Positions 1-23,464 of a stretch of 25,016 nt of DNA are shown one piece after another. Positions within the stretch are counted from its first letter, which is position 1. Every line of letters begins with the position of its first letter. The notes under the pieces are model-generated. The model was not told the origin of the DNA, made no database searches, and saw only the letters and a list, made by a program, of their open reading frames with translations. The position numbers were made by a program, and so were the translations under genes. Source of the DNA: a virus (lineage: Duplodnaviria > Heunggongvirae > Uroviricota > Caudoviricetes). The DNA lies in the IMG/VR virus record IMGVR_UViG_2675903352_000013, positions 1 to 25,016 of that record, one strand, 5' to 3'.

Positions 1-285
1 TCACTTAAATAAGTGATACTGGTTGTCTGGAGATTCAGGGGGCCAGTCTATAATAGCAGTGCGGTTAACTTCCCTCACACTCACCAGAAGTGATTCCAGA
101 CGCGTAACGGTGAAACTCCCCGGCCCAAGATTATCCAGGGCCACCAGCAAACGAGCTGTAAGCTCTGCGTCGCTGTCGTTCAGCGTTTTCACCATTCTGG
201 CCGCTACACCTGTGCTATAGCGAGATATCCAGATAGCATGGGCAATCGATTCATCACGCAGCCGTTCATTCACTGTTTGCATCAT
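1..285 (-). CDS. Phage head protein, N-terminal fragment (possibly head morphogenesis/minor capsid); gene continues beyond the window start
   Basis: ATG ATG at 285..280 on the minus strand, overlapping the portal stop (266..268); position immediately downstream of portal in the packaging operon. Family assignment is by synteny only. Confidence 0.35.
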   Translation of the reverse strand: MMQTVNERLRDESIAHAIWISRYSTGVAARMVKTLNDSDAELTARLLVALDNLGPGSFTVTRLESLLVSVREVNRTAIIDWPPESPDNQYHLFK

Positions 286-1672
286 TGATTCCCATCAGCG
301 TTACGCCCTGATTTTTTAATTCATCGATCACTTCCTCTGGACGGGAATCCTGATCGATAAATTTCAACGCCTGCAACACCCGAACCGCATCAATCTGACG
401 TATATCACCACCCTGACGCAATGACTGAACAGCCAGCGCGGAGGATGAGTCAAACACCTGGGCAGATACATCCAGCTCAGTGCGCACATCCACATTGCCG
501 CCACAACTCTCTCCGATCCATTCCGCCATTATCTGGAGAATATTATCGAGGGCATCTTCGAGGGAGTTCGCCATTGTATAAAGCGGCGAGTTTTCCTGCA
601 TCCGTTCTTCATTGGTCTGATCCACAGATTTAGTGGATGTATTTTCAGCCCGAAGAAGTTTAGCGCCGGCATGACGCATCTGATTTTCCAGTTTCTCCAG
701 AGATATTTCGCCAGACTCTATCGCGGCACCGCTATGCTCAACATATTCAAGGCCATTTTTTGCCCTGTCATCAAAAATCGTCGCGGTCGATGCTCCTACC
801 GTCAGTTCTTCGTTCCTGTCCAGTCCGTAAGCCACCAGCAATGGAACCCGAGCAACATGCAGAATATTGTCCTGCTCGCTCTGGCTTTGCCAGTGCTTGA
901 TATTCAGCAAGCCAAGATTAAGCAATGGCGGTGTACCGCGCATAAACCCGATTTTCTTCGTGTAAAGCGTTACCAAGGGAATATCATCACGGCTGGTTTC
1001 CCATGACTCGTGAAGCGTCCAGACAGATTCACCATTAGTACCTTCGCTGCGTCGATAAATTTCAACGCGACGGGACATGATATGGCGGATCTGCTCCACC
1101 TTCTTCTGCCCGAAATCATCACCATCGATAATGATGACTTCTTTTATACGCAAATCTGTGAGAACAACTTTTCCTTTTTCAACTTTCGATTTCCACCCAA
1201 TAACCTGACGGGGATTCAGCATCGTAACGTATGGGCGACTACCAACCGCATTTTCATCAGCTTTTGTCCGAATCCCTTTCATATCTGTTCGAGGATAATC
1301 CACCAGCGCATGCGCCACGCCATACTGAAGCGCTAGACAGAAAAATTGCTGCGCCCATACATCCAGTCGACTCCCCTCCATGTCGATATTTTCTGCATAT
1401 TCCCTGATTTTTTCCGGCGTCTCTTCACTCAGCACTGTCGGCTCTGCAAATATGCGCCCAATATTTTGCTTAATACTTTCTTCATACACAGGAAGTAGCG
1501 TAGCCACAGACAAGCGTTTTTTATATGTATCTTCATCTTCATTAGGCCATTTAGGGAGATAATTTTTCCCCTGCCTGCGCATTTCAAGCGTGCCACCCAT
1601 CAGTGCGTCGTTAATATCCCACGCCTCCAGCATATCGTTATAGTCGAGGTTGGGTGTTGATATATCAGCCAT
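266..1672 (-). CDS. Phage portal protein
   Basis: 468-aa ORF with ATG at 1672..1670, starting 2 nt after the TerL stop (TAA 1677..1675). Size and position directly downstream of TerL are typical of portal proteins; no specific motif recognised. Confidence 0.6.
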   Translation of the reverse strand: MADISTPNLDYNDMLEAWDINDALMGGTLEMRRQGKNYLPKWPNEDEDTYKKRLSVATLLPVYEESIKQNIGRIFAEPTVLSEETPEKIREYAENIDMEGSRLDVWAQQFFCLALQYGVAHALVDYPRTDMKGIRTKADENAVGSRPYVTMLNPRQVIGWKSKVEKGKVVLTDLRIKEVIIIDGDDFGQKKVEQIRHIMSRRVEIYRRSEGTNGESVWTLHESWETSRDDIPLVTLYTKKIGFMRGTPPLLNLGLLNIKHWQSQSEQDNILHVARVPLLVAYGLDRNEELTVGASTATIFDDRAKNGLEYVEHSGAAIESGEISLEKLENQMRHAGAKLLRAENTSTKSVDQTNEERMQENSPLYTMANSLEDALDNILQIMAEWIGESCGGNVDVRTELDVSAQVFDSSSALAVQSLRQGGDIRQIDAVRVLQALKFIDQDSRPEEVIDELKNQGVTLMGINDANSE

Positions 1673-1674
1673 AA

Positions 1675-3993
1675 TTAAATCCGAAGTGATGTAACTCTTC
1701 CGGTCGGTTTGACAATAGGGAATTGCTTAACAATAAAATAACCTCCGGCATCATTCGGGTGATCGTTGCCAGATTTTTTATCAGGCTCACCCTTATCATC
1801 CCAGACCTGTTGCTCCAGAGATTCGGCATATACCGGACAACGCTTCACATTAACTTTATAGCGACGCTCACCATTGGCATTGCAGAACATTGCATTCATT
1901 GAGTTAACGCGATCTTTTACTGGCGGATTCGAACTGTTTACAACAACGTTAAAACCAGCCTGTTTAAGCTGAGCAATATCCGTCGCACTTGCGTTATTTG
2001 ATTTTCTGGAATCCCCGGATGCATCAGGATAAATATAAATTTCCCTTACTTTCCGATAATCATTCCCGTCATATAACCAGAAGCGCTCTTTAATAATACG
2101 GATCATATCTGGTGTATCGTAAGCGTTAATGATTTCAGTTACTGCGCATGGAAGCCCAAAACGTAACACATGAACGACTCCAGCCATTTTTCCGACGTTA
2201 AAATCCATCCCGATATATATCGGCTCACCTGGCTGTTCCTCTTCTTCGCAATTATTCAGTTTTCGGTCAAACTGATGGTAAACAGTACCACTTGTCAGGT
2301 TAGTAAACTGTCCTCGAAGATAGGCTTTAATCAGCTCTGGAGGATATGACTCAAGGAGCGAGGGAATGTAATCTGCTGGCAAATTCTTTTCATTATCGAA
2401 AGTAGATGCCTGCACCAGACCATACAGTGAGGCCAGCTCTGTTTTTTCACGTACGGCTTTAACAAACTGCTCGTAGACAAATTTGAATCCTTCCGGCGTG
2501 GTTGTAACGTCAATACCGTTACGAAGTCCATCAACCTTATAACGCATACGCGCAATTATCTTGCGCCACGCTGTTCTGGCTTTTTCCTTCGGCAAAATGT
2601 CCAGTTCATCCACCAGCGCATTACCAATTTTGAAACCGACGATCGTTTGCGGCTTCTCCATCGTTCTGCAGATAGTGGTTCCACGATACTGACGTCCGTA
2701 ATAAAAATGAACTTCTTTATTTCCCTCGTTAATTTTTACATTTAGCCCCCAGTCGGCAGCAACTTCTTCAACTGTAGGATAAAAAATATCGCGAATTTGT
2801 GGATATGTAGGCGCAAAATATCCCTGATTTATACCCGGATGCTCCCAAATCCCCTTACATATGCCACCACATCCAACCCATGTTTTACCGCTATTGTGAT
2901 GAATCGTCCCATCAGCAGTTACGTAGCAGTTATTATCCAATACCTGGAGGTCATAATATGGCTCGGCCTTCTGCAACAGTGTTACACTCAATATGTTGCA
3001 GGTTTCGATTAAGGAGTTTGGTTTTGACGCCTCTTGACCGTTTAATTTGTGATTTAGCACATCCAGAACGTACCGTTTCAGAAGTTGCTTCTCTGGCAGG
3101 TTGTGACCGCAGTCATGTTTATCGTTGCATATCTCGTTATGGGTTAACGCTGAAACAACACCAGAAGCCTGTCCCTCGAGAAAGTGCGAAGGACAGAATC
3201 CTCGCTCTTGCTGATGGTCACCGTACGTCGGCAGAGATCGCGGCGGAAGTTGGTTGCACAGAAAAGCACGTTCAAAATATTCTCCGAATTCACAACGCCA
3301 ACCGGCTACCCTGTGGCGCCAGAAAGGGTGAGTTGAACCCCAGCTTTCGTGGTGGTCGAATTGTTGATCTGGATGGATATGCCGTTGTTCCAGCGCCTGC
3401 TGACCATCCATATATGCGCAGAACAGGCATGATGTTTGAACATCGTTTGATCGCTGAAAAGAAGCTGGGGCGTTATCTGCTGCCATCAGAAGTTGTTGAC
3501 CATATAGACGGGCTTCATCTGCATAACACCCCAAGTAATCTGCGAGTTTTTGATTCAAACGTGGATCACCTGCGTGCAACGATTTCGGGACGGCGGCCAA
3601 ACTGGTCAGAAGAAGGTTTTGCGAAGATGCAAATACCTTCACCGATTCGTCCAGACTATCCACAGATCGATAGCTACCGTCAGCGCAAAAAACGCGGTGA
3701 TGTCCGCTTGCTACAAATTCTCCTCGCTGCGTCACTACTCGGTATAGATTCGACACACCTTTTGGGTACGCACCACCACTTAGCGAAAGCTCAAATCGAT
3801 TATTCTCATCCGACCAAGATAAAACGCGCATTGGTCGAGTTATTTCCTGAATGGGTAGAATCCCATTCTCTGTAACCACAGGCGTACTTCCCCTCAGGCA
3901 ACCAAAACCAGCAACATAGGCTTTAAATTTATGAGGCATAGAAAGAAATCGCGCCTGAGGCACATTAAGCGTCGGAGAGATCATCTTCATCAC
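1675..3993 (-). CDS. Terminase large subunit (TerL) carrying an in-frame intein within the Walker A P-loop
   Basis: Continuous 772-aa ORF. N-extein ends KAYVAGFG and C-extein begins SGKTWVGCGG, so removing residues 32..367 restores a canonical P-loop AGFGSGKT. Downstream motifs: Walker B-like NALVDELD, and nuclease-domain acidic motifs IYIGMDFNVGK and YPDASGDS. Start overlaps the putative terS 3' end by 29 nt. Confidence 0.8.
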   Translation of the reverse strand: MMKMISPTLNVPQARFLSMPHKFKAYVAGFGCLRGSTPVVTENGILPIQEITRPMRVLSWSDENNRFELSLSGGAYPKGVSNLYRVVTQRGEFVASGHHRVFCADGSYRSVDSLDESVKVFASSQNLLLTSLAAVPKSLHAGDPRLNQKLADYLGCYADEARLYGQQLLMAADNAPASFQRSNDVQTSCLFCAYMDGQQALEQRHIHPDQQFDHHESWGSTHPFWRHRVAGWRCEFGEYFERAFLCNQLPPRSLPTYGDHQQERGFCPSHFLEGQASGVVSALTHNEICNDKHDCGHNLPEKQLLKRYVLDVLNHKLNGQEASKPNSLIETCNILSVTLLQKAEPYYDLQVLDNNCYVTADGTIHHNSGKTWVGCGGICKGIWEHPGINQGYFAPTYPQIRDIFYPTVEEVAADWGLNVKINEGNKEVHFYYGRQYRGTTICRTMEKPQTIVGFKIGNALVDELDILPKEKARTAWRKIIARMRYKVDGLRNGIDVTTTPEGFKFVYEQFVKAVREKTELASLYGLVQASTFDNEKNLPADYIPSLLESYPPELIKAYLRGQFTNLTSGTVYHQFDRKLNNCEEEEQPGEPIYIGMDFNVGKMAGVVHVLRFGLPCAVTEIINAYDTPDMIRIIKERFWLYDGNDYRKVREIYIYPDASGDSRKSNNASATDIAQLKQAGFNVVVNSSNPPVKDRVNSMNAMFCNANGERRYKVNVKRCPVYAESLEQQVWDDKGEPDKKSGNDHPNDAGGYFIVKQFPIVKPTGRVTSLRI
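2893..3900 (-). other. Intein (Hint domain) inserted in the TerL P-loop, about 336 aa
   Basis: Read directly from the minus-strand translation: block A-like CLRGSTPVVTENGILPIQEI starting with Cys (codon 3900..3898); block B-like GEFVASGHHRVF; block F/G-like YYDLQVLDNNCYVTADGTIHHN followed by +1 Ser (codon 2892..2890). No LAGLIDADG or HNH motif in this frame between the blocks. Confidence 0.7.
2958..3875 (+). CDS. HNH endonuclease (HNH_3-like motif) with two N-terminal HTH-like segments, encoded antisense within the TerL intein
   Basis: Plus-strand ORF (track 2880..3875). ATG at 2958 is preceded by GGAGG at 2946..2950 with a 7-nt spacer. Motif DGYAVVPAPADHPYMRRTGMMFEHRLIAEKKLGRYLLPSEVVDHIDGLHLHNTPSNLRVFDSNVDHL matches the classic phage HNH homing-endonuclease pattern. 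Two HTH-like repeats upstream (RTVSEVASLAGCDRSHVYRCISRYGL and RTSAEIAAEVGCTEKHVQNILRIHNA). The C-terminal ~100 aa may be non-functional read-through constrained by the opposite-strand frame. Confidence 0.6.
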   Translation: MARPSATVLHSICCRFRLRSLVLTPLDRLICDLAHPERTVSEVASLAGCDRSHVYRCISRYGLTLKQHQKPVPRESAKDRILALADGHRTSAEIAAEVGCTEKHVQNILRIHNANRLPCGARKGELNPSFRGGRIVDLDGYAVVPAPADHPYMRRTGMMFEHRLIAEKKLGRYLLPSEVVDHIDGLHLHNTPSNLRVFDSNVDHLRATISGRRPNWSEEGFAKMQIPSPIRPDYPQIDSYRQRKKRGDVRLLQILLAASLLGIDSTHLLGTHHHLAKAQIDYSHPTKIKRALVELFPEWVESHSL

Positions 3994-5059
3994 TCCTCAC
4001 TCTGGCATCAACCACATTAATATTGATCGCCACAGGCTGGGGATGTTCATTACCCTCCACCGTTTCGATCTCTTTGCGCAGTTTCTGGTTTTCCATTCTG
4101 CGCCGTTCAATTTCCAGTTCCTGCAGTCGCTTATCTGCACATAATGCCCCGCCAGCGGAAAGCAAACGCAATAATTCACGCCGGGCGGCAGCTTTATTCT
4201 CCAGCAGGATCTCAACGCCGAATTTTCCGAGCTTTGCTCCTGCATACAATTGCCGCGCATTTCCATCAAGCAAAGTGGTATCAGCCATATAAAGCTGACC
4301 TGTACCTTCTCCACCGCATTTCGGACAGTCTGGATTTGGTATGGCGCTATCAACGAAACCGAGGCCACCATATTCAGGTTCTGGTTTACCATCTTTGGAT
4401 GCCTGCGCGGCAGCCCTGTCAAATTCTGCTATATCGCGCCACTGATAGAGGTGATTCTCCCCCCAGCAATAGCGACAGTTAACACGGCGAAATTGCGCAA
4501 GCTGATTGGGATCAGCCTGCACGATGGCCATCAACTGACTCACCAGTAAATCCAGGTCTGCGGTATAGCGTTTCTGGTAATGATTGCGAAAGTAGCTGAT
4601 GGCACGAAAAACCCTGGCATTTCTAAGCATACGACTGGCATTGCTGTTTGCTGTCGCACCTTGCCCCTCGTAACCAGCCAGGCGGTATGCCTCTGTCGGC
4701 TTTTTCCCCTGAGCAACCAACATGGCGAATTTTGCCTGCTGGTCAGAAATACCGAATTCATCGGGGCAAAACGAAATTTCTTCCGTGTCCCCCTCAATCA
4801 GGAGTGCATCGGATACAGCCTTTTTTTTCTGAGATTTTCCGTTTTGCTTTTGCGCAGTCTGCGCAGTTTTTTTTCGCGCACTTTTTTGCGCAGTTTTGCG
4901 CACTTCTGTCTGCGCATTTTTCGGAGGTTTCTTGATGTAACGACGGGCTGTTGCGTAATTCAGTCCCTTTGCTTCACACCACGCCACCGGAGATACACCG
5001 GAGCGGGTGTATTCAGCAATATATTCCTGCTGCAACGCCCCCCAGTCCGGTCTGCTCAT
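3965..5059 (-). CDS. Putative terminase small subunit / DNA-packaging DNA-binding protein
   Basis: 364-aa ORF with ATG at 5059..5057, immediately upstream of and overlapping TerL. N-terminal HTH-like segment (VSPVAWCEAKGLNYATARRYI), Lys/Gln-rich low-complexity linker, CxxC...CxxC pair, C-terminal coiled-coil-like tail. Assignment rests on synteny and architecture. Confidence 0.45.
   Translation of the reverse strand: MSRPDWGALQQEYIAEYTRSGVSPVAWCEAKGLNYATARRYIKKPPKNAQTEVRKTAQKSARKKTAQTAQKQNGKSQKKKAVSDALLIEGDTEEISFCPDEFGISDQQAKFAMLVAQGKKPTEAYRLAGYEGQGATANSNASRMLRNARVFRAISYFRNHYQKRYTADLDLLVSQLMAIVQADPNQLAQFRRVNCRYCWGENHLYQWRDIAEFDRAAAQASKDGKPEPEYGGLGFVDSAIPNPDCPKCGGEGTGQLYMADTTLLDGNARQLYAGAKLGKFGVEILLENKAAARRELLRLLSAGGALCADKRLQELEIERRRMENQKLRKEIETVEGNEHPQPVAININVVDARVRSDEDDLSDA
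4842..4925. repeat. Array of six (T)GCGCA(G/C)-T-rich direct repeats at roughly helical spacing inside the putative terS gene
   Basis: Sequence ttttgcgcagtctgcgcagttttttttcgcgcacttttttgcgcagttttgcgcacttctgtctgcgcattttt; GCGCA cores near 4852, 4861, 4877, 4888, 4898 and 4911. The corresponding protein segment is a low-complexity K/T/A/Q stretch. Confidence 0.6.
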
Positions 5060-5062
5060 CAG

Positions 5063-5314
5063 TTAGTCCTGATTTTTATCCACCCTGAGTAATGCACGCA
5101 GAGCAAAGGCATCCCCTTTTCTGGCAAGCTTAAACAATGCCGCCCGTAGCTCGGCTTCACCTTTCGCTCTGCCCTTACGGATGGACGCATAAAAATTTGT
5201 CATTGTTTCCCGATTTTCTTTCAGTCTGTTCAGATCAACATCCAGAACGTCAGCGATTTGTTGTGCAGTCATCCGGCATGCTGCCAGAGACTCGACTTTC
5301 GAATACGGAATCAT
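5063..5314 (-). CDS. Small HTH-containing protein directly upstream of terS
   Basis: 83-aa ORF, ATG at 5314..5312 preceded by a GGGGGTGA Shine-Dalgarno-like sequence; stop TAA is 3 nt before the terS ATG. HTH-like segment MTAQQIADVLDVDLNRL. Confidence 0.45.
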   Translation of the reverse strand: MIPYSKVESLAACRMTAQQIADVLDVDLNRLKENRETMTNFYASIRKGRAKGEAELRAALFKLARKGDAFALRALLRVDKNQD

Positions 5315-6200
5315 TTATCACCCCCATTGATATGCAGGGTGTCTTCTTCCTGTATTTTTCGTGAAGGATTTTTACTGCAGCGTTGTTCCAGGTGACCTGA
5401 TGGTGAATGCGTTTATGGCTGGCGCCCATCAGTGAGATTTTTACGCACGACGGCGCATACATGACGGAGTAAAAACTTTTAACGTAGGTACCGGAATCCA
5501 GATACAGTTCGGTCATTCCGCCGCTGTTTTTCTGCGTTTGCTTCTGCCCTAACTGGACAGCGCCAATCGTCAAAAACAATTCACCACGACGACCGAGATT
5601 CGTGTATGTATTCACATCCTCGTTAATACGCCCCATAAATGAGAATGGTCGGTCAACAGAACAAATAAAGCTGTTCATTGCTTTGCGTTTCACCCATGCA
5701 GCATGACCACCATTATCACCAAGAAAGTCTCCCCCCTGCGCCATAGCGATGGAAAGCGCAGGAATTGATTCGTAATACGCCAGCATTTCAGAAAGGATCG
5801 CGTCCAGTTTCCTTATCGGAAAATAAGCCTGGTCATAGTTGCGATCTACCCGAAACTGAAACTCGTGATAGTCGTCATCAAGCTGGATGTAGTATTTACA
5901 CCCAACCTTTTTTGCCAGGCCCAAACAGGCATTCCTGGCATAAAAGATTGAACGTCGATCGCCAAAGTTGTCGGCTTCGTCAAAACGACTGGCGATATCG
6001 GCTTTGGAAAACACCAGCACCTGCTCACCAAATTCTGCTACGTACTGATGCCGGGTTTTATCTTCATCATCAACAACGATAAAAATTTTCCCGGTATAGC
6101 CAGCACGACGCAACGTCCGGTAAGTCAGAACTTTGTCCGGTCGCCCGTGAGTCAGAATAAAGGCGCAAAAATCATCACGCATATTACTCCTCCTCGCCAT
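5250..6200 (-). CDS. Hypothetical protein with GT-A-like glycosyltransferase signatures
   Basis: 316-aa ORF, ATG at 6200..6198 with SD GGTGGAG; overlaps the ParB-like gene by 17 nt. N-terminal pattern FILTHGRPDKVL...GKIFIVVDDED and a DxD-like motif YIQLDDDYHEF resemble the GT-A fold. The fold call is tentative. Confidence 0.5.
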   Translation of the reverse strand: MARRSNMRDDFCAFILTHGRPDKVLTYRTLRRAGYTGKIFIVVDDEDKTRHQYVAEFGEQVLVFSKADIASRFDEADNFGDRRSIFYARNACLGLAKKVGCKYYIQLDDDYHEFQFRVDRNYDQAYFPIRKLDAILSEMLAYYESIPALSIAMAQGGDFLGDNGGHAAWVKRKAMNSFICSVDRPFSFMGRINEDVNTYTNLGRRGELFLTIGAVQLGQKQTQKNSGGMTELYLDSGTYVKSFYSVMYAPSCVKISLMGASHKRIHHQVTWNNAAVKILHEKYRKKTPCISMGVINDSVFESRVSGSMPDDCTTNR

Positions 6201-6963
6201 GCATGATCTCCACCATGCGCTGCGTCATCCTGACAAACCCATTTTCAATTGCCTGCTGATAATCAATGATCACCAGAGCCGATTCCTCAAAAAGGCTCTG
6301 AATTTCAGCGGGGGCGTGAGCGTAATAGTCCGCGATTCTGCTGAAATTAAACACCGTGTGACGTTCTGCCGCGCACAGAAGGAATTTCTCAATATCAGGA
6401 TCAAGGGACACCGAACGTGTCCGGCTGATCAGCTCCTGAGTTTTCGTATCGTCGTACAGTTCACAGATATCCGGTTTATCGCCTGACGGCTCATAAACAG
6501 GCGTATCAATTTTCGTCGTATACGGCTCCTCCTCATTTCCTGTACCAGGCAAAATATCCGTCAACAGTTCATCAATTTCTGTCGGGCTGAAGCCTGTCAG
6601 GGAGACATCAAAATCAGCATTAATTAGGTCCGACAGCTCCATCCGTAACAGATCTTCATCCCAGCCAGCATTCATCGGCAGGCGATTATCTGCCAGACGG
6701 TACGCCTTTTTCTGATCATCCGTCAGACCAGACAGAACGATGACCGGAACGAAATCCATTTTGAGCACTTCAGCCGCCATAACGCGACCGTGACCCGCAA
6801 TAACTTCGCCCTTTTCATCAATCAGCACCGGATTAGTCCAGCCAAATTGCTTAATGCTTTCTACCAGTTGCGTCACCTGCTCAGGGCTGTGTGTCCTGGC
6901 ATTGTGTGCATACAGAGACAGCTCTTGTAACGGGCGATAGACGATCTTCAATTTCTCGCTCAT
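6184..6963 (-). CDS. ParB-like nuclease domain protein
   Basis: 259-aa ORF, ATG at 6963..6961 with SD GAGG. N-terminal ParB/Srx-like domain (YRPLQELSLYAHNARTH, LVESIKQFGWTNPVLID, IAGHGRVMAAEVL, KKAYRLADNRL); acidic C-terminal half. Confidence 0.7.
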   Translation of the reverse strand: MSEKLKIVYRPLQELSLYAHNARTHSPEQVTQLVESIKQFGWTNPVLIDEKGEVIAGHGRVMAAEVLKMDFVPVIVLSGLTDDQKKAYRLADNRLPMNAGWDEDLLRMELSDLINADFDVSLTGFSPTEIDELLTDILPGTGNEEEPYTTKIDTPVYEPSGDKPDICELYDDTKTQELISRTRSVSLDPDIEKFLLCAAERHTVFNFSRIADYYAHAPAEIQSLFEESALVIIDYQQAIENGFVRMTQRMVEIMHGEEE

Positions 6964-18814: not shown

Positions 18815-21800
18815 ATGAGCACTGACAAACAAAATTTTGCGTTACATTGCGACGCGAAAAATGAGGGCGCAAGAAAACGCCTCGGCATCAAAGGCGGCTT
18901 CTTCTGGACAGAGGCAAAAAAACTTTCTGTTGCGGTTTCACGCTGCATTGCTGCAATGGACGATGCAGGCTACGACGAAGATGATTTTAAAAAACCTGTT
19001 CGCGTAAATTTGCCCGTTGTTGATGACCTTCCGCCAGAAGGCGTATTTGATACGGAATTCTGCAACCGTTACGAAAAAGGCGGTGAAGATGGCATTACAA
19101 TGGTATTTATCGCGCCATCACACTCTGTTCAGGACAAACCAGCCAGCACTGACAACACCAACGTCAACGGCGAAGATATGACTGAGATTGAGGAGAATAT
19201 GCTACTCCCGATTTCAGGTCAGATTCTGCCTGTTCGCTGGCTGGCACAGCACAGCAGCGAAAAACCGGTAACGCACGTTTCACGGGAAGAACTGCGCGCA
19301 TTACATAACGCACAGGATGAAAAACTTCCCGCAGTTACAGCGCTGGCCATCTCAAATAAAGCAGCGCAACTCGAACCGCTGGAGATTCGCGATCTCCACA
19401 AACTGGTTCGTGACACTGACAAAGTTTTCCCTAATCCTGGTAATTCAGATCTGGGACTGATGACTGCTTTTTTCGAAGCATACCTGGGCACCGACTACAC
19501 CGATCGAGGTCTGCTGACAAAAGAGTGGATGAAAGGGAATCGTGTTTCACGCATCACCCGCACGCCCTCCGGTGCTAATGCTGGCGGCGGGAACAAAACT
19601 GATCGCGGTGAAGATTTCGTCCACGATCAGGCTTCGCTGGCACGCGATGTTGCGACTGGCATTCTGGCCCGTTCAATGGATGTTGATATTTATAACCTTC
19701 ATCCGGCACACGCTAAACGTATTGATGAAATCATCGCAGAGAATAAGCCGCCCTTTTCTGTTTTCCGTGACATATTCACTGCTATGCCTGGGGGATTGGA
19801 TTATTCCCGCGCCATCGTGGTTGCATCCGTGAAAGAAGCACCTATCGGTATTGAGGTTATTCACGCGCACGTCACTGAATATCTGAACAAGGTGCTGATT
19901 GAAACCAATCACGCCAATCCTGATCAGGAAATCGTGGATATTACTTGCGGCCGTTCCTCAGCCCCAATGCCACAGCGTGATACAGAAGAAGGAAAACAAG
20001 GTGAAGAAAAACCACAACCATCTGGCGCAATGGCAAATGAACAGGCAACGCCTGAAACAGTGGAACCGGATACAACTGAACATCATCAGAACACGCAGTC
20101 GATGGATGCTCAGCCACAGGTAAATTCTGTTGATGCGAAATATCAGGAACTGAGGGCAGAACTCCATGAAGCCCGGAAAAACATTCCGCCCCAAAATCCT
20201 GTCGATGCAGACAAATTACTGGCTGCCTATCGCGGAGAATTTGTTGAAGGGATTAGCGACCCGAATGATCCGAAATGGGTTAAGGGGATCCAGACTCGCG
20301 ATTCTGTGTACCAGCATCAGCCAGAAACGGAACAGAACGACCAGAAAGCTGAACAGAACAGCCCAAATACGCAACAAAACGAGCCAGAAACGAAACAGTC
20401 TGAGCCAGTAGTGCAACAACAGGAAACGGAGAAAGTTTGCACCGCCTGCGGTCAGGCTGGAGGAAATAGCTGCCCTGACTGTGGTGCAGTGATGGGAGAC
20501 GCAACGTATCAGGAAACCTTTAATGAAGAAAATATGGATGAATCTCAGGAAAAAGATTCGGAGAAAATGGAAGACGATAAACATCCGCACAAGGAAAACA
20601 CTGGCAACCATCCGCATCACAATTGCAGTGATGAAACTGGTGAAGCGTCAGCTCCTGTAGCAACTGAAATCATGTGGCCGTCATATTTCGAGCCTGGTCG
20701 CTATGAAAACCTCCCGAACGAGGTTTATCACGCCGCCAACGGAATAAGCAGCACGATGCTGAAGGATGCCCGTATCAGTTTGATGTATTACCACGGGCGG
20801 CACATTGCCGGAACTATTCCGTGTGAAGAAAGTGATGCATTGCTACGTGGGCGGATCATTCACAGCTATGTTCTGGAAACGGATAAATTCTCTGATGAAT
20901 ATGCCATTCCGGTACCGGTTCCTGAAGATGTGGTTGCCACTTCTCAAGAACTGATCGCCATTATTAAAAAACACAATGCCAGTTTGCCAGCACTGATGAC
21001 GCCAGAGCAGATAAAAGAGTGGATCGAAAACTACAACAGCACTCTTATTCAGCCACTGTCGGTAAGTGCTGGAGCCGAAGAAACAGGCATTCTTTACGGC
21101 TCGCTCCCGGAGGAATTCCGGCGTATTCCAGAAGGAGAAAAACACACTGCATCAGCAATGAAAGCCTGTATTAAAGAATACAACGCAAGCCTCCCCTCTC
21201 TACTGAAAACCAGTGGAACACGGGAGCAACTTCTGGAGCAAATTGAAACTGTAGATCCAGAACTGGCAAAAAAGAACGGGCTAAATCTTTGCCTTACAAC
21301 ATCAGTGGTACAAAAGAGCAATTAACCGAAATCGCCCGGAAAATTCGCCCGGAACTGGTAACACTGGAGGACTGGCAAAAACGCCAGCAAGAAGAAAATG
21401 CAGGAAAAACGTTTATCAGTCCAGATATGTATGAACAGGCAAAAAATATTCACGCGGCACTGCAAAACAATACTGACGCGGCAAGACTACTCAACCACCC
21501 GGATCGCAAATCTGAAATCAGCTATTTCGGGTTTGATGAAGAAACCGGGCTGGAAATCAGGGTCCGCCCTGATATCGAAATCCGACTGCCATACGAAAGC
21601 ATCTGCGCCGACGTGAAATCAGTAAGCTTCGGTTATGTGCGGCAAGAACGACTAAAAGATCGCTTACACCGTGAAATTATTGAACGTGATTATCACCTGA
21701 GCGCCGCAATGTACTGCGATGTGGCAAACCTGGATAAATTTTTCTGGGTCTTCGTCAATAAGGATGCTGGCTATCACTGGGTGGCAGTTGTGGAAGCTTC

Positions 21801-21960
21801 GCAGGAACTCCTTGAACTTGGTCGCCAGGAGTATCGCCGGACGCTACGCCAGATAAACGAAGCTCTGGAGACAAACAACTGGCCAGCACCAATTACCGAA
21901 AGTTATACCGACGAATTAAACGACTTTGATCTTCGTCGTCTTGAAGCACTGAGCATCTGA
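18815..21960 (+). pseudogene. recE: RecE (exonuclease VIII) homologue, apparently split by a frameshift into 836-aa and 223-aa ORFs
   Basis: N-terminal and central regions strongly resemble Rac RecE as recalled. The nuclease domain begins in ORF1 ([15 protein letters not shown]...[12 protein letters not shown]) and continues in ORF2 (RPDIEIRLPYE...DVKSV), which has no ATG (TTG at 21289); the frames overlap at 21247..21325. Confidence 0.7.
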
Positions 21961-21971
21961 GGAAGGACACA

Positions 21972-23024
21972 ATGAACGAATTAACTCAACAAGAAAATAT
22001 TAACTCTAACGTTGCGGTTTTCAGCCCTCAGTCCCTGGCTGCAATTCAGACATTTTCTCAGGTAATGGCTTCCGGCATGGCTACTGTACCGGAACACCTC
22101 CGGGGAAATCCATCAGACTGTATGGCCATCACCATGCAGGCGATGCAGTGGCAAATGAACCCTTACGCAGTAGCTCAGAAAACTTTCGTTGTGAATGGTG
22201 TGCTCGGATATGAAGCGCAACTGGTTAATGCCGTAATCAGTACCCGTGGACCGCTAACCGGGCGTATTGAATATGACTGGTTCGGACCGTGGGAAAAAAT
22301 TATCGGGAAATTTGAAATCAGGAAGAACGATAAAGGGAAAGAATATCGCGTACCTGGATGGAAGCTGGCCGATGAAAACGGGATCGGAGTTCGTGTCCAG
22401 GCAACGCTACGTGGAGAGAGCAAACCACGCGTACTTGAGTTACTTCTGGCGCAGGCCAGAACACGTAACTCAACGTTATGGGCCGATGATCCTCGCCAGC
22501 AACTTGCCTATCTGGCACTAAAACGCTGGGCACGCCTTTATTGCCCTGAAGTGATTCTTGGAGTGTACACCCGGGACGAACTGGACGAACCACAGGAAAA
22601 AATCATTAATCCGGTTCAGGAACATAAAAACACATCCGCCTGCCGTGCGGAACGTGAAACAACAATTATTGAGCAGGATGCCGGGGAAAACTGGATCGAT
22701 GCTTTCCGTGAACGTATTGAGCAAGCACAAAGCACCGAAGAAACAACGGCACTTCGCCAGGAAGTAGAAGCTCATAAAAATACACTTGGTGCTCTCTACA
22801 CAGAACTTAAAGGAAAAGTGGTTCAGCGTCATCACCGTCTTAATGCTATTGCCCGTATTGAGAAGATGATAAATGACCTGCCTTCATCAGGTGATCCAGA
22901 AGCAGAACAAAAATTTACGGCTCTGGAAAACACGCTGAATGCTGTACGACCACATTTAGGAGAATTATATGAGGCGTATAAAACGACACTGACAGACCTG
23001 AAACCAGAATATATCGGCTCCTGA
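21972..23024 (+). CDS. RecT/Bet (Redbeta)-family single-strand annealing protein
   Basis: 350-aa ORF immediately downstream of recE, RBS GGAAGGA. Segment TLWADDPRQQLAYLALKRWARLYCPEVILGVYTRDE parallels the conserved GPW...ARLAFGFAGIYDKDE region of lambda Bet. Confidence 0.7.
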   Translation: MNELTQQENINSNVAVFSPQSLAAIQTFSQVMASGMATVPEHLRGNPSDCMAITMQAMQWQMNPYAVAQKTFVVNGVLGYEAQLVNAVISTRGPLTGRIEYDWFGPWEKIIGKFEIRKNDKGKEYRVPGWKLADENGIGVRVQATLRGESKPRVLELLLAQARTRNSTLWADDPRQQLAYLALKRWARLYCPEVILGVYTRDELDEPQEKIINPVQEHKNTSACRAERETTIIEQDAGENWIDAFRERIEQAQSTEETTALRQEVEAHKNTLGALYTELKGKVVQRHHRLNAIARIEKMINDLPSSGDPEAEQKFTALENTLNAVRPHLGELYEAYKTTLTDLKPEYIGS

Positions 23025-23088: not shown

Positions 23089-23283
23089 ATGCGATATGAA
23101 AAAGTTAAGCCATGTCCGTTTTGTGGTTGTCCATCTGTAACAGTGAAAGCCATTTCAGGGTATTACCGGGCAAAATGCAACGGCTGCGAATCCCGAACTG
23201 GCTATGGTGGAAGTGAGAAAGAAGCCCTCGAAAGATGGAATAAACGAACCGCTGAAAATATTAATGGAGGCATCTATGTATAA
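23089..23283 (+). CDS. ralR: Restriction alleviation protein RalR (Lar)
   Basis: 64-aa product from the second ATG: MRYEKVKPCPFCGCPSVTVKAISGYYRAKCNGCESRTGYGGSEKEALERWNKRT..., matching Rac Lar as recalled. Confidence 0.8.
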   Translation: MRYEKVKPCPFCGCPSVTVKAISGYYRAKCNGCESRTGYGGSEKEALERWNKRTAENINGGIYV

Positions 23284-23464
23284 AATTACCGCCACAATTG
23301 AAAAGGAAGGTGGTACTCCTACTAACTGGACAAGATATTCAAAATCTAAACTAACGAAATCAGAATGCGAAAAAATGCTCTCAGGGAAAAAAGAAGCAGG
23401 CGTTTCCAGAGAGCAAAAAGTAAAACTGATGAATTTTAATTGCGAGAAACTTCAGTCCTGGTAA
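23276..23464 (+). CDS. ydaC: YdaC-like small protein
   Basis: ATG at 23276 preceded by GGAGG at a 6-nt spacer; overlaps the ralR stop; product MYKITATIEKEGGTPTNWTRYSKSKLTKSECEKMLSGKKEAG... Confidence 0.6.
   Translation: MYKITATIEKEGGTPTNWTRYSKSKLTKSECEKMLSGKKEAGVSREQKVKLMNFNCEKLQSW

Follow-up and report, generated by a model that had tools for sequence, protein, structure and literature searches.

The window, that is, the whole stretch of 25,016 nt that was analysed, carries the genes of the small and large terminase subunits and of the portal protein, whose coordinates are collected in Table 1 with those of the features discussed below. The product of terS matches Pfam Terminase_2 (PF03592; 31.4 bits vs a cutoff of 26.1, aa 122-321) and the 'terminase small subunit' family PHROG 51 (E 2e-74), and the large subunit is of the T4-like Terminase_6N/6C type. 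The distant relatives of the TerS core include that of Pseudomonas phage F116, a generalized transducer. Beyond the short ORF that directly precedes terS, the genes of a TAGT-type glycosyltransferase and of a ParB_N protein are located further upstream. The prophage is assigned to the Rac-like lambdoid elements because its relatives adjoin ynaK/trkG, and the RalA sRNA detected with Rfam at 23282-23460 agrees with this assignment.

Table 1. Features of the terminase region, in window coordinates
Feature	Position	Strand	Remarks
Portal gene	266-1672		downstream of terS
terL, large terminase	1675..3993	-	T4-type Terminase_6N/6C, profile match
Intein in terL, 336 aa	2893-3900
terS, small terminase, 364 aa	3965..5059	-	Pfam Terminase_2, PHROG 51
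Terminase_2 core with Zn-ribbon insert	aa 122-321, window 4097-4696	-
DNA for basic low-complexity linker, codons 43-80	4820..4933	-	A-tracts alternating with GCGC cores
Hexamer array	4851..4916	.	five TGCGCA + CGCGCA; proposed core of pac / TerS-recognition site
Exact TGCGCA copies	4851-4856, 4860-4865, 4887-4892, 4897-4902, 4911-4916	+
Degenerate copy CGCGCA	4875-4880	+	one-off variant
terS codons 1-44, three-helix PacA-like HTH domain	4928..5059	-	MSRPDWGALQQEYIAEYTRSGVSPVAWCEAKGLNYATARRYIKK; proposed hexamer reader
83-aa ORF directly upstream of terS	5063..5314	-	related to part of TerS family phrog_309

Enterobacterial TerS proteins share a layout in which a 45-residue N-domain, with the consensus MAKPDWGALQ.QFLAEHAKTGISPKDWCEAQGLNYATARRYIKK, is followed by a linker of variable length and sequence and then by the Terminase_2 core, while the core-only TerS homologues of about 245-260 aa have no N-terminal extension at all. 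In the window, the DNA that codes for the linker between the N-terminal 45-residue HTH domain and the Terminase_2 core is occupied by an array of five TGCGCA hexamers and one variant within 66 bp. An earlier sequence-only reading of this DNA had reported six TGCGCA-type copies within terS, separated by T-runs and lying over a low-complexity K/T/A/Q linker, and each of these elements is found at its place: five copies are exact and the sixth reads CGCGCA, the T-runs of the + strand correspond to A-tracts of 4-8 nt on the coding strand, and the K/T/A/Q-rich peptide encoded under the array is PKNAQTEVRKTAQKSARKKTAQTAQKQ. On the coding strand, the hexamers start at terS nt 144, 158, 168, 180, 195 and 204 (array nt 144-209), with successive spacings of 14, 10, 12, 15 and 9 bp. 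The same reading had described the copies as close to helical phasing; this description is not supported by the spacings, which do not place the cumulative positions on one face of the helix, or by the family-wide hexamer periodicity, which is strongest at 3 and 12-13 bp and only weak at 10-10.5 bp. No second cluster of at least three TGCGCA within 60 bp is present elsewhere in the 25-kb window.

The codons in which the hexamers are embedded are informative on the level at which the array operates. Their coding-strand readings are AAT GCG CAG, GTG CGC AAA, ACT GCG CAA, AGT GCG CGA, ACT GCG CAG and ACT GCG CAA, so that five copies share the frame xxT GCG CAx and one, GTG CGC AAA, is out of frame with the others. 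In the five same-frame copies, the leading T occupies a free third-codon position and the Ala codon is invariably GCG. The hexamer is in excess over both chance and coding need. Specifically, TGCGCA occurs 20 times in the whole window vs 10.4 expected, and the probability that 5 of the 20 sites fall inside 66 bp is about 4e-6 according to our own scan-statistic estimate. When the codons are permuted with the peptide held fixed (synonymous shuffles, n = 3000), codons 43-100 of the window gene contain 5 TGCGCA vs 0.40 expected, and none of the 3000 shuffles reaches this count. With the motif fixed beforehand from the window, shuffles of four distant lineages (36-55% TerS identity) return 4 copies vs 0.23 expected, 5 vs 0.67, 4 vs 0.65 and 5 vs 0.72, with P <= 0.001 for the excess in each.

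A conservative and unbiased variant of this analysis, the max-6-mer test, considers any 6-mer that reaches the same multiplicity under the codon usage of the gene itself; for the terS gene of the window, the array zone yields P = 0.008 and the 300 nt that follow yield P = 1.0. The top 6-mer of this test is TGCGCA in 14 of 15 representatives, mostly with P <= 0.004, and the control zone reaches P < 0.05 in 5 of 34 genes. As a positive control of the method, the same test recovers TGATCA in the pacA genes of P1 and of Cronobacter phage JK004 (P = 0.000 and 0.005, respectively). Since one copy lies off-frame and the shuffles never reach the observed count, the array acts on DNA rather than on protein.

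Conservation among relatives leads to the same conclusion. A total of 239 loci was gathered from genomes, IMG/VR contigs and phage records, and de-replication by k-mer similarity alone, which does not make the loci phylogenetically independent, left 38 representatives with an ARRY-type N-domain, as in the window, and 11 with an AKRY-type one. The vB_EcoS records reportedly come from a genome survey of clinical isolates. Protein searches with the 59-aa N-terminus returned mostly frameshift-truncated fragments and were of little use for diversity. Between nt 110 and 400, all 38 non-redundant ARRY-type terS genes contain 4-8 TGCGCA, in at least two reading frames in 37 of them and in all three in 6; Buttiauxella locus L008, for instance, uses three frames (AGT GCG CAA, ACT GCG CAG, ATG CGC AAC, AAC TGC GCA). 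The common spacings in the family are 7, 10 and 14 bp, none of which is a multiple of three, and the flanks of the hexamer follow the consensus AAA(N)TGCGCA(A/G)A. The density of TGCGCA is 24.4 per kb in the array zone vs 0.53 per kb across the remainder of these loci, and hexamers in two or three frames persist down to about 36% TerS identity, while the linker diverges in sequence and length. The repeats are thus conserved independently of the protein, in shifting frames and positions, which was the outcome that the sequence-only reading had named as a check. Moreover, its suggestion that a DNA-level signal dominates over the peptide is borne out by the off-frame copy, the synonymous-shuffle excess and the frame-independent conservation taken together: the array is under selection at the DNA level.

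The number of copies is far less constant than their sequence. Among near-identical relatives, the differences amount to whole repeat units (one copy more in L026, one less in L027 and two less in L028), indicating that the array is plastic in number and constant in word. Decay is seen in some of the E. coli copies (MRK to MCK, GCG to GCA), and public data contain many terS alleles that are truncated by frameshifts at the A-runs. The variable copy number and the decayed copies imply either that no single copy is essential or that many of these prophages are defective.

The type of hexamer changes with the type of N-domain. All 38 ARRY genes carry at least four TGCGCA and neither TGCGAA nor TTCGCA, and all 11 AKRY genes carry at least four TGCGAA/TTCGCA and at most two TGCGCA; in the latter, the motif often takes the form of a 12-bp palindrome, TGCGAATTCGCA, that encodes A-N-S-Q. 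The ARRY type also occurs in Aeromonas phage phiARM81mr, with seven TGCGCA in two frames and none elsewhere in its 3.2-kb locus, and in the Stx phage GER2, with five copies in three frames, while Klebsiella RothD, Pasteurella Pmp11 and Providencia PSTCR3 are all of the AKRY type and carry TGCGAA/TTCGCA. Each domain type is found on at least two unrelated TerS cores, as tblastn matches the N-module alone on unrelated C-terminal cores. The TGCGCA-type arrays of Aeromonas and Escherichia phages and of Serratia and Pantoea genome loci have differing neighbours, and across the sequences compared the TerS N-domain is the only constant partner of the array. TerS genes with another N-domain (...GW.R) have repeats of their own, namely GTACGCA, GGGGCAA, AAAGTCAC, TGGAAA and ACGGTCGG; 4 of 12 such genes pass the max-6-mer test, and with the control zone at P < 0.05 in the fraction of genes given above, the extension to other N-domains is only partly supported.

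The N-domain matches no named Pfam or NCBIfam family above threshold, the sub-threshold matches being to transposase-type HTH domains (IS66 TnpA for the domain of the window, IS21/IS3 for PacA). Its AF2 model consists of three helices with a pLDDT of 78-89, and the best Foldseek matches of this model are DeoR/SorC bound to operator, IS21 IstA and sigma region 4, all with E > 0.5; since these matches are not significant, the HTH likeness serves only as a matter of consistency. A profile built from 17 N-domain sequences aligns colinearly with the N-terminus of the P1/JK004 PacA proteins over 39 columns (hhalign, 93.6%, E 2e-7, with small profiles of Neff about 2), and pairwise BLASTP aligns 39-41 residues with E 0.009, the rest of TerS belonging to another family. 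The N-domain of TerS thus resembles the N-terminus of PacA, and the suggested homology derives from a short domain and shallow profiles. When PacA residues 1-306 are used as the tblastn query, only P1-like phages are retrieved.

The likeness to P1 extends from the domain to the DNA. The pac site of P1 is a 161-bp segment of pacA in which seven TGATCA/G repeats contain Dam sites (PMC10028697; PMC11260489), arranged as HEX4-IHF-cleavage-HEX3 (Sternberg & Coulby; Skorupski et al.; summarised in PMC10028697). Its function depends on the methylation of the hexamers, and their synonymous mutation lowers the titre about 9-fold (PMC10028697). In the P1 record, the TGATCA/G hexamers start at pacA nt 194, 201, 213 and 228 and at 324, 336 and 347 (range 194-352), in two frames, and the primary cleavage sites lie at nt 276-285, adjoining the IHF site. 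In phage JK004, whose PacA is 68% identical to that of P1, the hexamers are at the same positions despite the diverged peptide. As in P1, the window has an array of palindromic TGNNCA hexamers inside the small-terminase gene, beginning just past the DNA for an N-terminal HTH domain and a basic stretch, with hexamers in more than one frame that are kept while the peptide diverges.

Several differences accompany these similarities. The hexamer has a CG centre in the window (TGCGCA) and an AT centre in P1 (TGATCA/G), and the six copies form one cluster of 66 bp, whereas those of P1 flank a central cleavage site in a 4+3 layout; this bipartite arrangement is absent from the window terS, which holds no second cluster. 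No match to the IHF consensus WATCARNNNNTTR was found in the first 500 nt of terS. The hexamers contain no GATC, so that the Dam methylation control of P1 cannot apply here. Furthermore, TerS has a Terminase_2/Zn-ribbon core and is paired with a T4-type Terminase_6 large subunit, in place of the PacA and PacB of P1. The array is therefore regarded as a probable variant of the P1-type pac that falls outside the P1 system proper. The recognition helices are nearly the same, NTARRYL in P1 vs ATARRYI in the window, although the centre of the hexamer changes from AT to CG, and hence the helix alone cannot explain the specificity; part of it must come from other residues or, in P1, from methylation.

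On this basis, the array is probably the recognition part of the Rac-like prophage's pac site, built on the plan of P1. The candidate pac or TerS-binding site that the sequence-only reading had placed inside terS is accordingly upheld as a conserved element that tracks a PacA-like N-domain, and its function as such a site is the step drawn by comparison; binding, cleavage, packaging direction and stoichiometry are likewise inferred. According to the proposed mechanism, the N-domain HTH would be tethered by a long basic linker to the ring-forming Terminase_2 core, and the linker-coding DNA would present five to six palindromic hexamers, about 12 bp apart, with A-tracts between them that render it bendable. 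On concatemeric phage DNA, a single TerS oligomer would use several of its N-domains to engage several hexamers in a cooperative manner, and the bound array would mark this DNA for the T4-type TerL, which would cut nearby. Headful packaging would then start in the terS-to-terL direction, towards lower coordinates, a direction that is suggested by analogy with P1 and other pac phages. The DNA of the linker is proposed to do double duty, encoding a Lys-rich peptide and providing bendable, hexamer-bearing DNA.

Reader domain and sites lie within about 250 bp and would thus move as one unit, a cassette that has been grafted onto TerS cores unrelated to each other. The odds are even that this represents a portable reader-plus-site cassette, found on at least three unrelated cores and obeying a simple rule in which ARRY corresponds to TGCGCA, AKRY to TGCGAA/TTCGCA and the P1 domain to TGATCA. 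The cassette would occur in Escherichia phages, Stx phages among them, in phages of Klebsiella, Aeromonas, Pasteurella and Providencia, and in prophage-like loci within Serratia and Pantoea genomes.

The co-variation of domain and hexamer says that the two belong together but not what binding achieves, and hexamers bound by the N-domain might instead act as a roadblock or operator in the terS-terL operon, that is, in autoregulation rather than at the start of packaging. The pac region of SPP1, which covers promoters together with the beginning of the gene for the small terminase (PMC4737164), offers a parallel for such a function, and autoregulation and packaging could coexist, as proposed for SPP1. 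As a replacement for packaging, autoregulation is unlikely: there is no promoter-like site in 4500-5400, the array is intragenic and lies well past the start codon, genome recognition is what TerS is known to do, and the homologous arrangement of P1 is a proven cleavage and packaging site (PMC10028697). An origin without any DNA-level function is more improbable still. In that case, the array would be a neutral by-product of a slippage-prone, A-rich, microsatellite-like linker in which TGCGCA was caught up by accident, and the whole-unit copy changes between near-identical relatives, the common frameshifts at A-runs and the low complexity of the linker peptide would fit such a process. Slippage would, however, be expected to let the hexamer decay at 36-55% TerS identity, where the linkers are unalignable, whereas it is kept in every ARRY gene and gives way as a block to TGCGAA/TTCGCA where a single residue of the HTH is changed; comparable repeats are, in addition, mostly lacking from the control zone of these genes.

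An RNA or transcription signal, in which hexamer hairpins would stabilise the mRNA or terminate antisense transcription entering terS, is very improbable. Three terminator-like sites of the + strand do fall within the array (e.g., 4850-4866, with a 7-bp stem and a T8 tail), and both strands fold better than shuffles (z -3.1 and -3.8), but hairpin potential of this kind comes with the repetition of any palindromic hexamer. Terminator-like matches were found on the antisense strand only, with no intrinsic terminator in the direction of terS, and the sense-strand hairpins have the homopolymer run before rather than after them. Moreover, the locus matches no Rfam family, the variable spacing yields no conserved structure, and the relatives with another N-domain carry direct repeats that do not pair (GTACGCA, AAAGTCAC and GGGGCAA, significant in 4/12 genes). 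A comparably slight probability is given to a different binder of the hexamers, such as the HTH-like 83-aa protein, the ParB-like protein, a host factor or a methyltransferase/restriction system. TGCGCA is an FspI-type site, the genes of the 83-aa, ParB_N and glycosyltransferase proteins are directly upstream, and P1 pac is methylation-dependent (PMC10028697), all of which would suit such a binder. The 83-aa family, however, is found beside terS genes of five different motif types, many TGCGCA-type loci do not have it, and without co-variation with the motif the protein is ruled out as the hexamer reader, although it is possibly a packaging accessory. For the remaining candidates, the occurrence of TGCGCA arrays across hosts with different neighbours again points to the TerS N-domain as the sole constant partner.

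The comparison with other packaging systems places the array closest to P1. P22 and SPP1 had been named in the sequence-only reading as precedents for a pac site inside the small terminase gene; this feature would be shared with them, but the best precedent is P1. The TerS core of SPP1/SF6 is of the same Pfam family, Terminase_2, and their pac (pacL-pacC-pacR, with box repeats, read by G1P) resembles the array in overlapping the start of terS, in having direct repeats and in consisting of AT-run/GC-step DNA (PMC4737164). DNA in which AT-runs alternate with GC/CG pairs has been proposed to wrap around small terminase rings, and the box repeats of SF6/SPP1 have little effect on binding by the DBD, so that recognition has been attributed to DNA shape (PMC4737164). 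Unlike in SPP1/SF6, an exact hexamer is conserved here and switches with a reader domain absent from SPP1 G1P, an argument for base-specific recognition by this extra domain. Like the array, the pac of P22 is embedded in the coding sequence of terS and can be tested by wobble mutations (PMC11260489). It differs, however, in being a single asymmetric site of about 22 bp, not repeated, inside gene 3, and P22 TerS belongs to an unrelated fold family without an N-terminal accessory HTH.

In phage lambda, the R-sites of cosB are repeated sites for the N-terminal winged HTH of gpNu1 and adjoin the cut site. Multiple repeats proposed for the N-terminal HTH of a small terminase are thus common to both systems, but the R-sites are intergenic, 16 bp long and IHF-dependent, and are part of a cos system whose TerL is of the lambda type, in contrast to the intragenic hexamers and T4-type TerL of the window. 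The LF82 phage Gally, which has a mapped pac peak inside terS (PMC9928086), was considered as direct evidence and set aside, as its small TerS is unrelated and its TerL is of the PBSX type. The literature searched, from which the older P1 literature stood apart, contained no description of a TGCGCA array or of a PacA-like cassette.

The sequence of a pac site has been defined in very few cases: that of ES18 is still unknown (PMC11260489), and recognition in SPP1/SF6 looks largely sequence-independent (PMC4737164). Here, comparative genomics alone leads to a discrete, base-specific candidate site and to its probable reader domain. If this holds true, packaging specificity and pac sites could be read from the sequence of hundreds of prophages, and specificity could be re-programmed by swapping about 250 bp. 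If confirmed, the site would also indicate the point from which lateral transduction proceeds in these lysogens, would yield, like P1 pac, compact and portable packaging signals for use in phagemid and transduction tools, and would provide a one-residue/one-base switch (R39K with C-to-A) for studying DNA recognition by small terminases. Of 5426 complete E. coli genomes, 905 contain a close relative of the terS region of the window.

The arrangement in which an N-terminal HTH domain of TerS would recognise repeats in the DNA encoding its own linker may extend beyond the terS genes that carry the TGCGCA array. Specifically, the terS genes of five relatives (L009, L105, L108, L014, and L114) encode a different N-terminal HTH domain (the ...GW.R type); the DNA for the corresponding linker contains repeats peculiar to these genes and independent of reading frame, including GTACGC (five copies in two frames, plus one inverted copy), AAAGTC (five copies, belonging to a longer AAAGTCAC repeat), and GGGCAA (four copies). 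The wider distribution of this layout is suggested because the repeats of GW.R-type genes are significant in 4 of the 12 genes tested.

The linker is also the place where many public TerS sequences are interrupted. Numerous proteins of 66-104 aa annotated as “terminase” (clusters P0005 and P0026-P0051) are N-terminal pieces of the TerS encoded here and arise by frameshifts at the A-runs of the linker (4820-4933); the fragment cluster P0035 is found on 62 contigs, P0005 comprises 46 member sequences, and a frameshift is also present in the relative L091. Homopolymer sequencing errors, pseudogenes, or slippage products are the candidate origins of these fragments. A terS segment 86% identical in DNA to this enterobacterial gene (query 272-867) is found in PP818812.1 (Actinobacillus phage vB_Apl-pPE4), whose recorded host, Actinobacillus pleuropneumoniae, makes such identity unexpected.

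Upstream of terS (see the table), the 83-aa ORF, annotated as 69 aa in relatives, aligns to the middle of phrog_309, a “terminase small subunit” PHROG of 319 positions, and is kept beside terS genes of several distinct N-domain types; it may represent a second, separate packaging accessory. The neighbouring glycosyltransferase is labelled TAGT by Pfam, “beta-glucosyl-HMC-alpha-glucosyltransferase” by PHROG, and “GREB1-related” by RefSeq. DNA modification tied to packaging is possible; none of the ORFs scanned was recognised as a TET/JBP or methyltransferase gene.

Features of the window outside terS
Feature	Position	Strand	Remarks
Antisense ORF, 331 aa	2880-3875	+	encodes an HNH endonuclease that also has HTH domains; Pfam HNH_3; PHROG 10730, E 6e-48
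terL insert, 336 aa	2893-3900	-	inside terL (1675-3993)
83-aa ORF	5063-5314	-	directly upstream of terS; phrog_309, E 2e-21
TET-associated-type glycosyltransferase and ParB_N-domain protein	5250-6963	-	immediately upstream of the packaging genes
RecE-like and RecT-like genes	18815-23024		
RalA antitoxin sRNA, full-length	23282-23460	-	Rfam RF02694, 209 bits

The large terminase gene is interrupted exactly at its Walker-A motif, which reads GFG/SGKTW in relatives and GFG/CLRGST...TIHHN/SGKTW in the window (slashes mark the junctions). The junctions bear a canonical intein signature, and the Intein_splicing match to the insert is weak (E 0.0055). The insert is carried by L025, L026, L028, and L051, while L027 and the remaining relatives have a terL from which it is precisely absent. 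On the other strand, the antisense ORF covers nearly the entire intein, and synonymous shuffles of either frame introduce about nine stops in the opposite one; since 0 of 5000 remain open, about 1 kb at this locus seems to be maintained open on both strands. The insert may be an intein with its homing endonuclease encoded antisense.

The RalA sRNA is the marker of the Rac-prophage RalR/RalA toxin-antitoxin.
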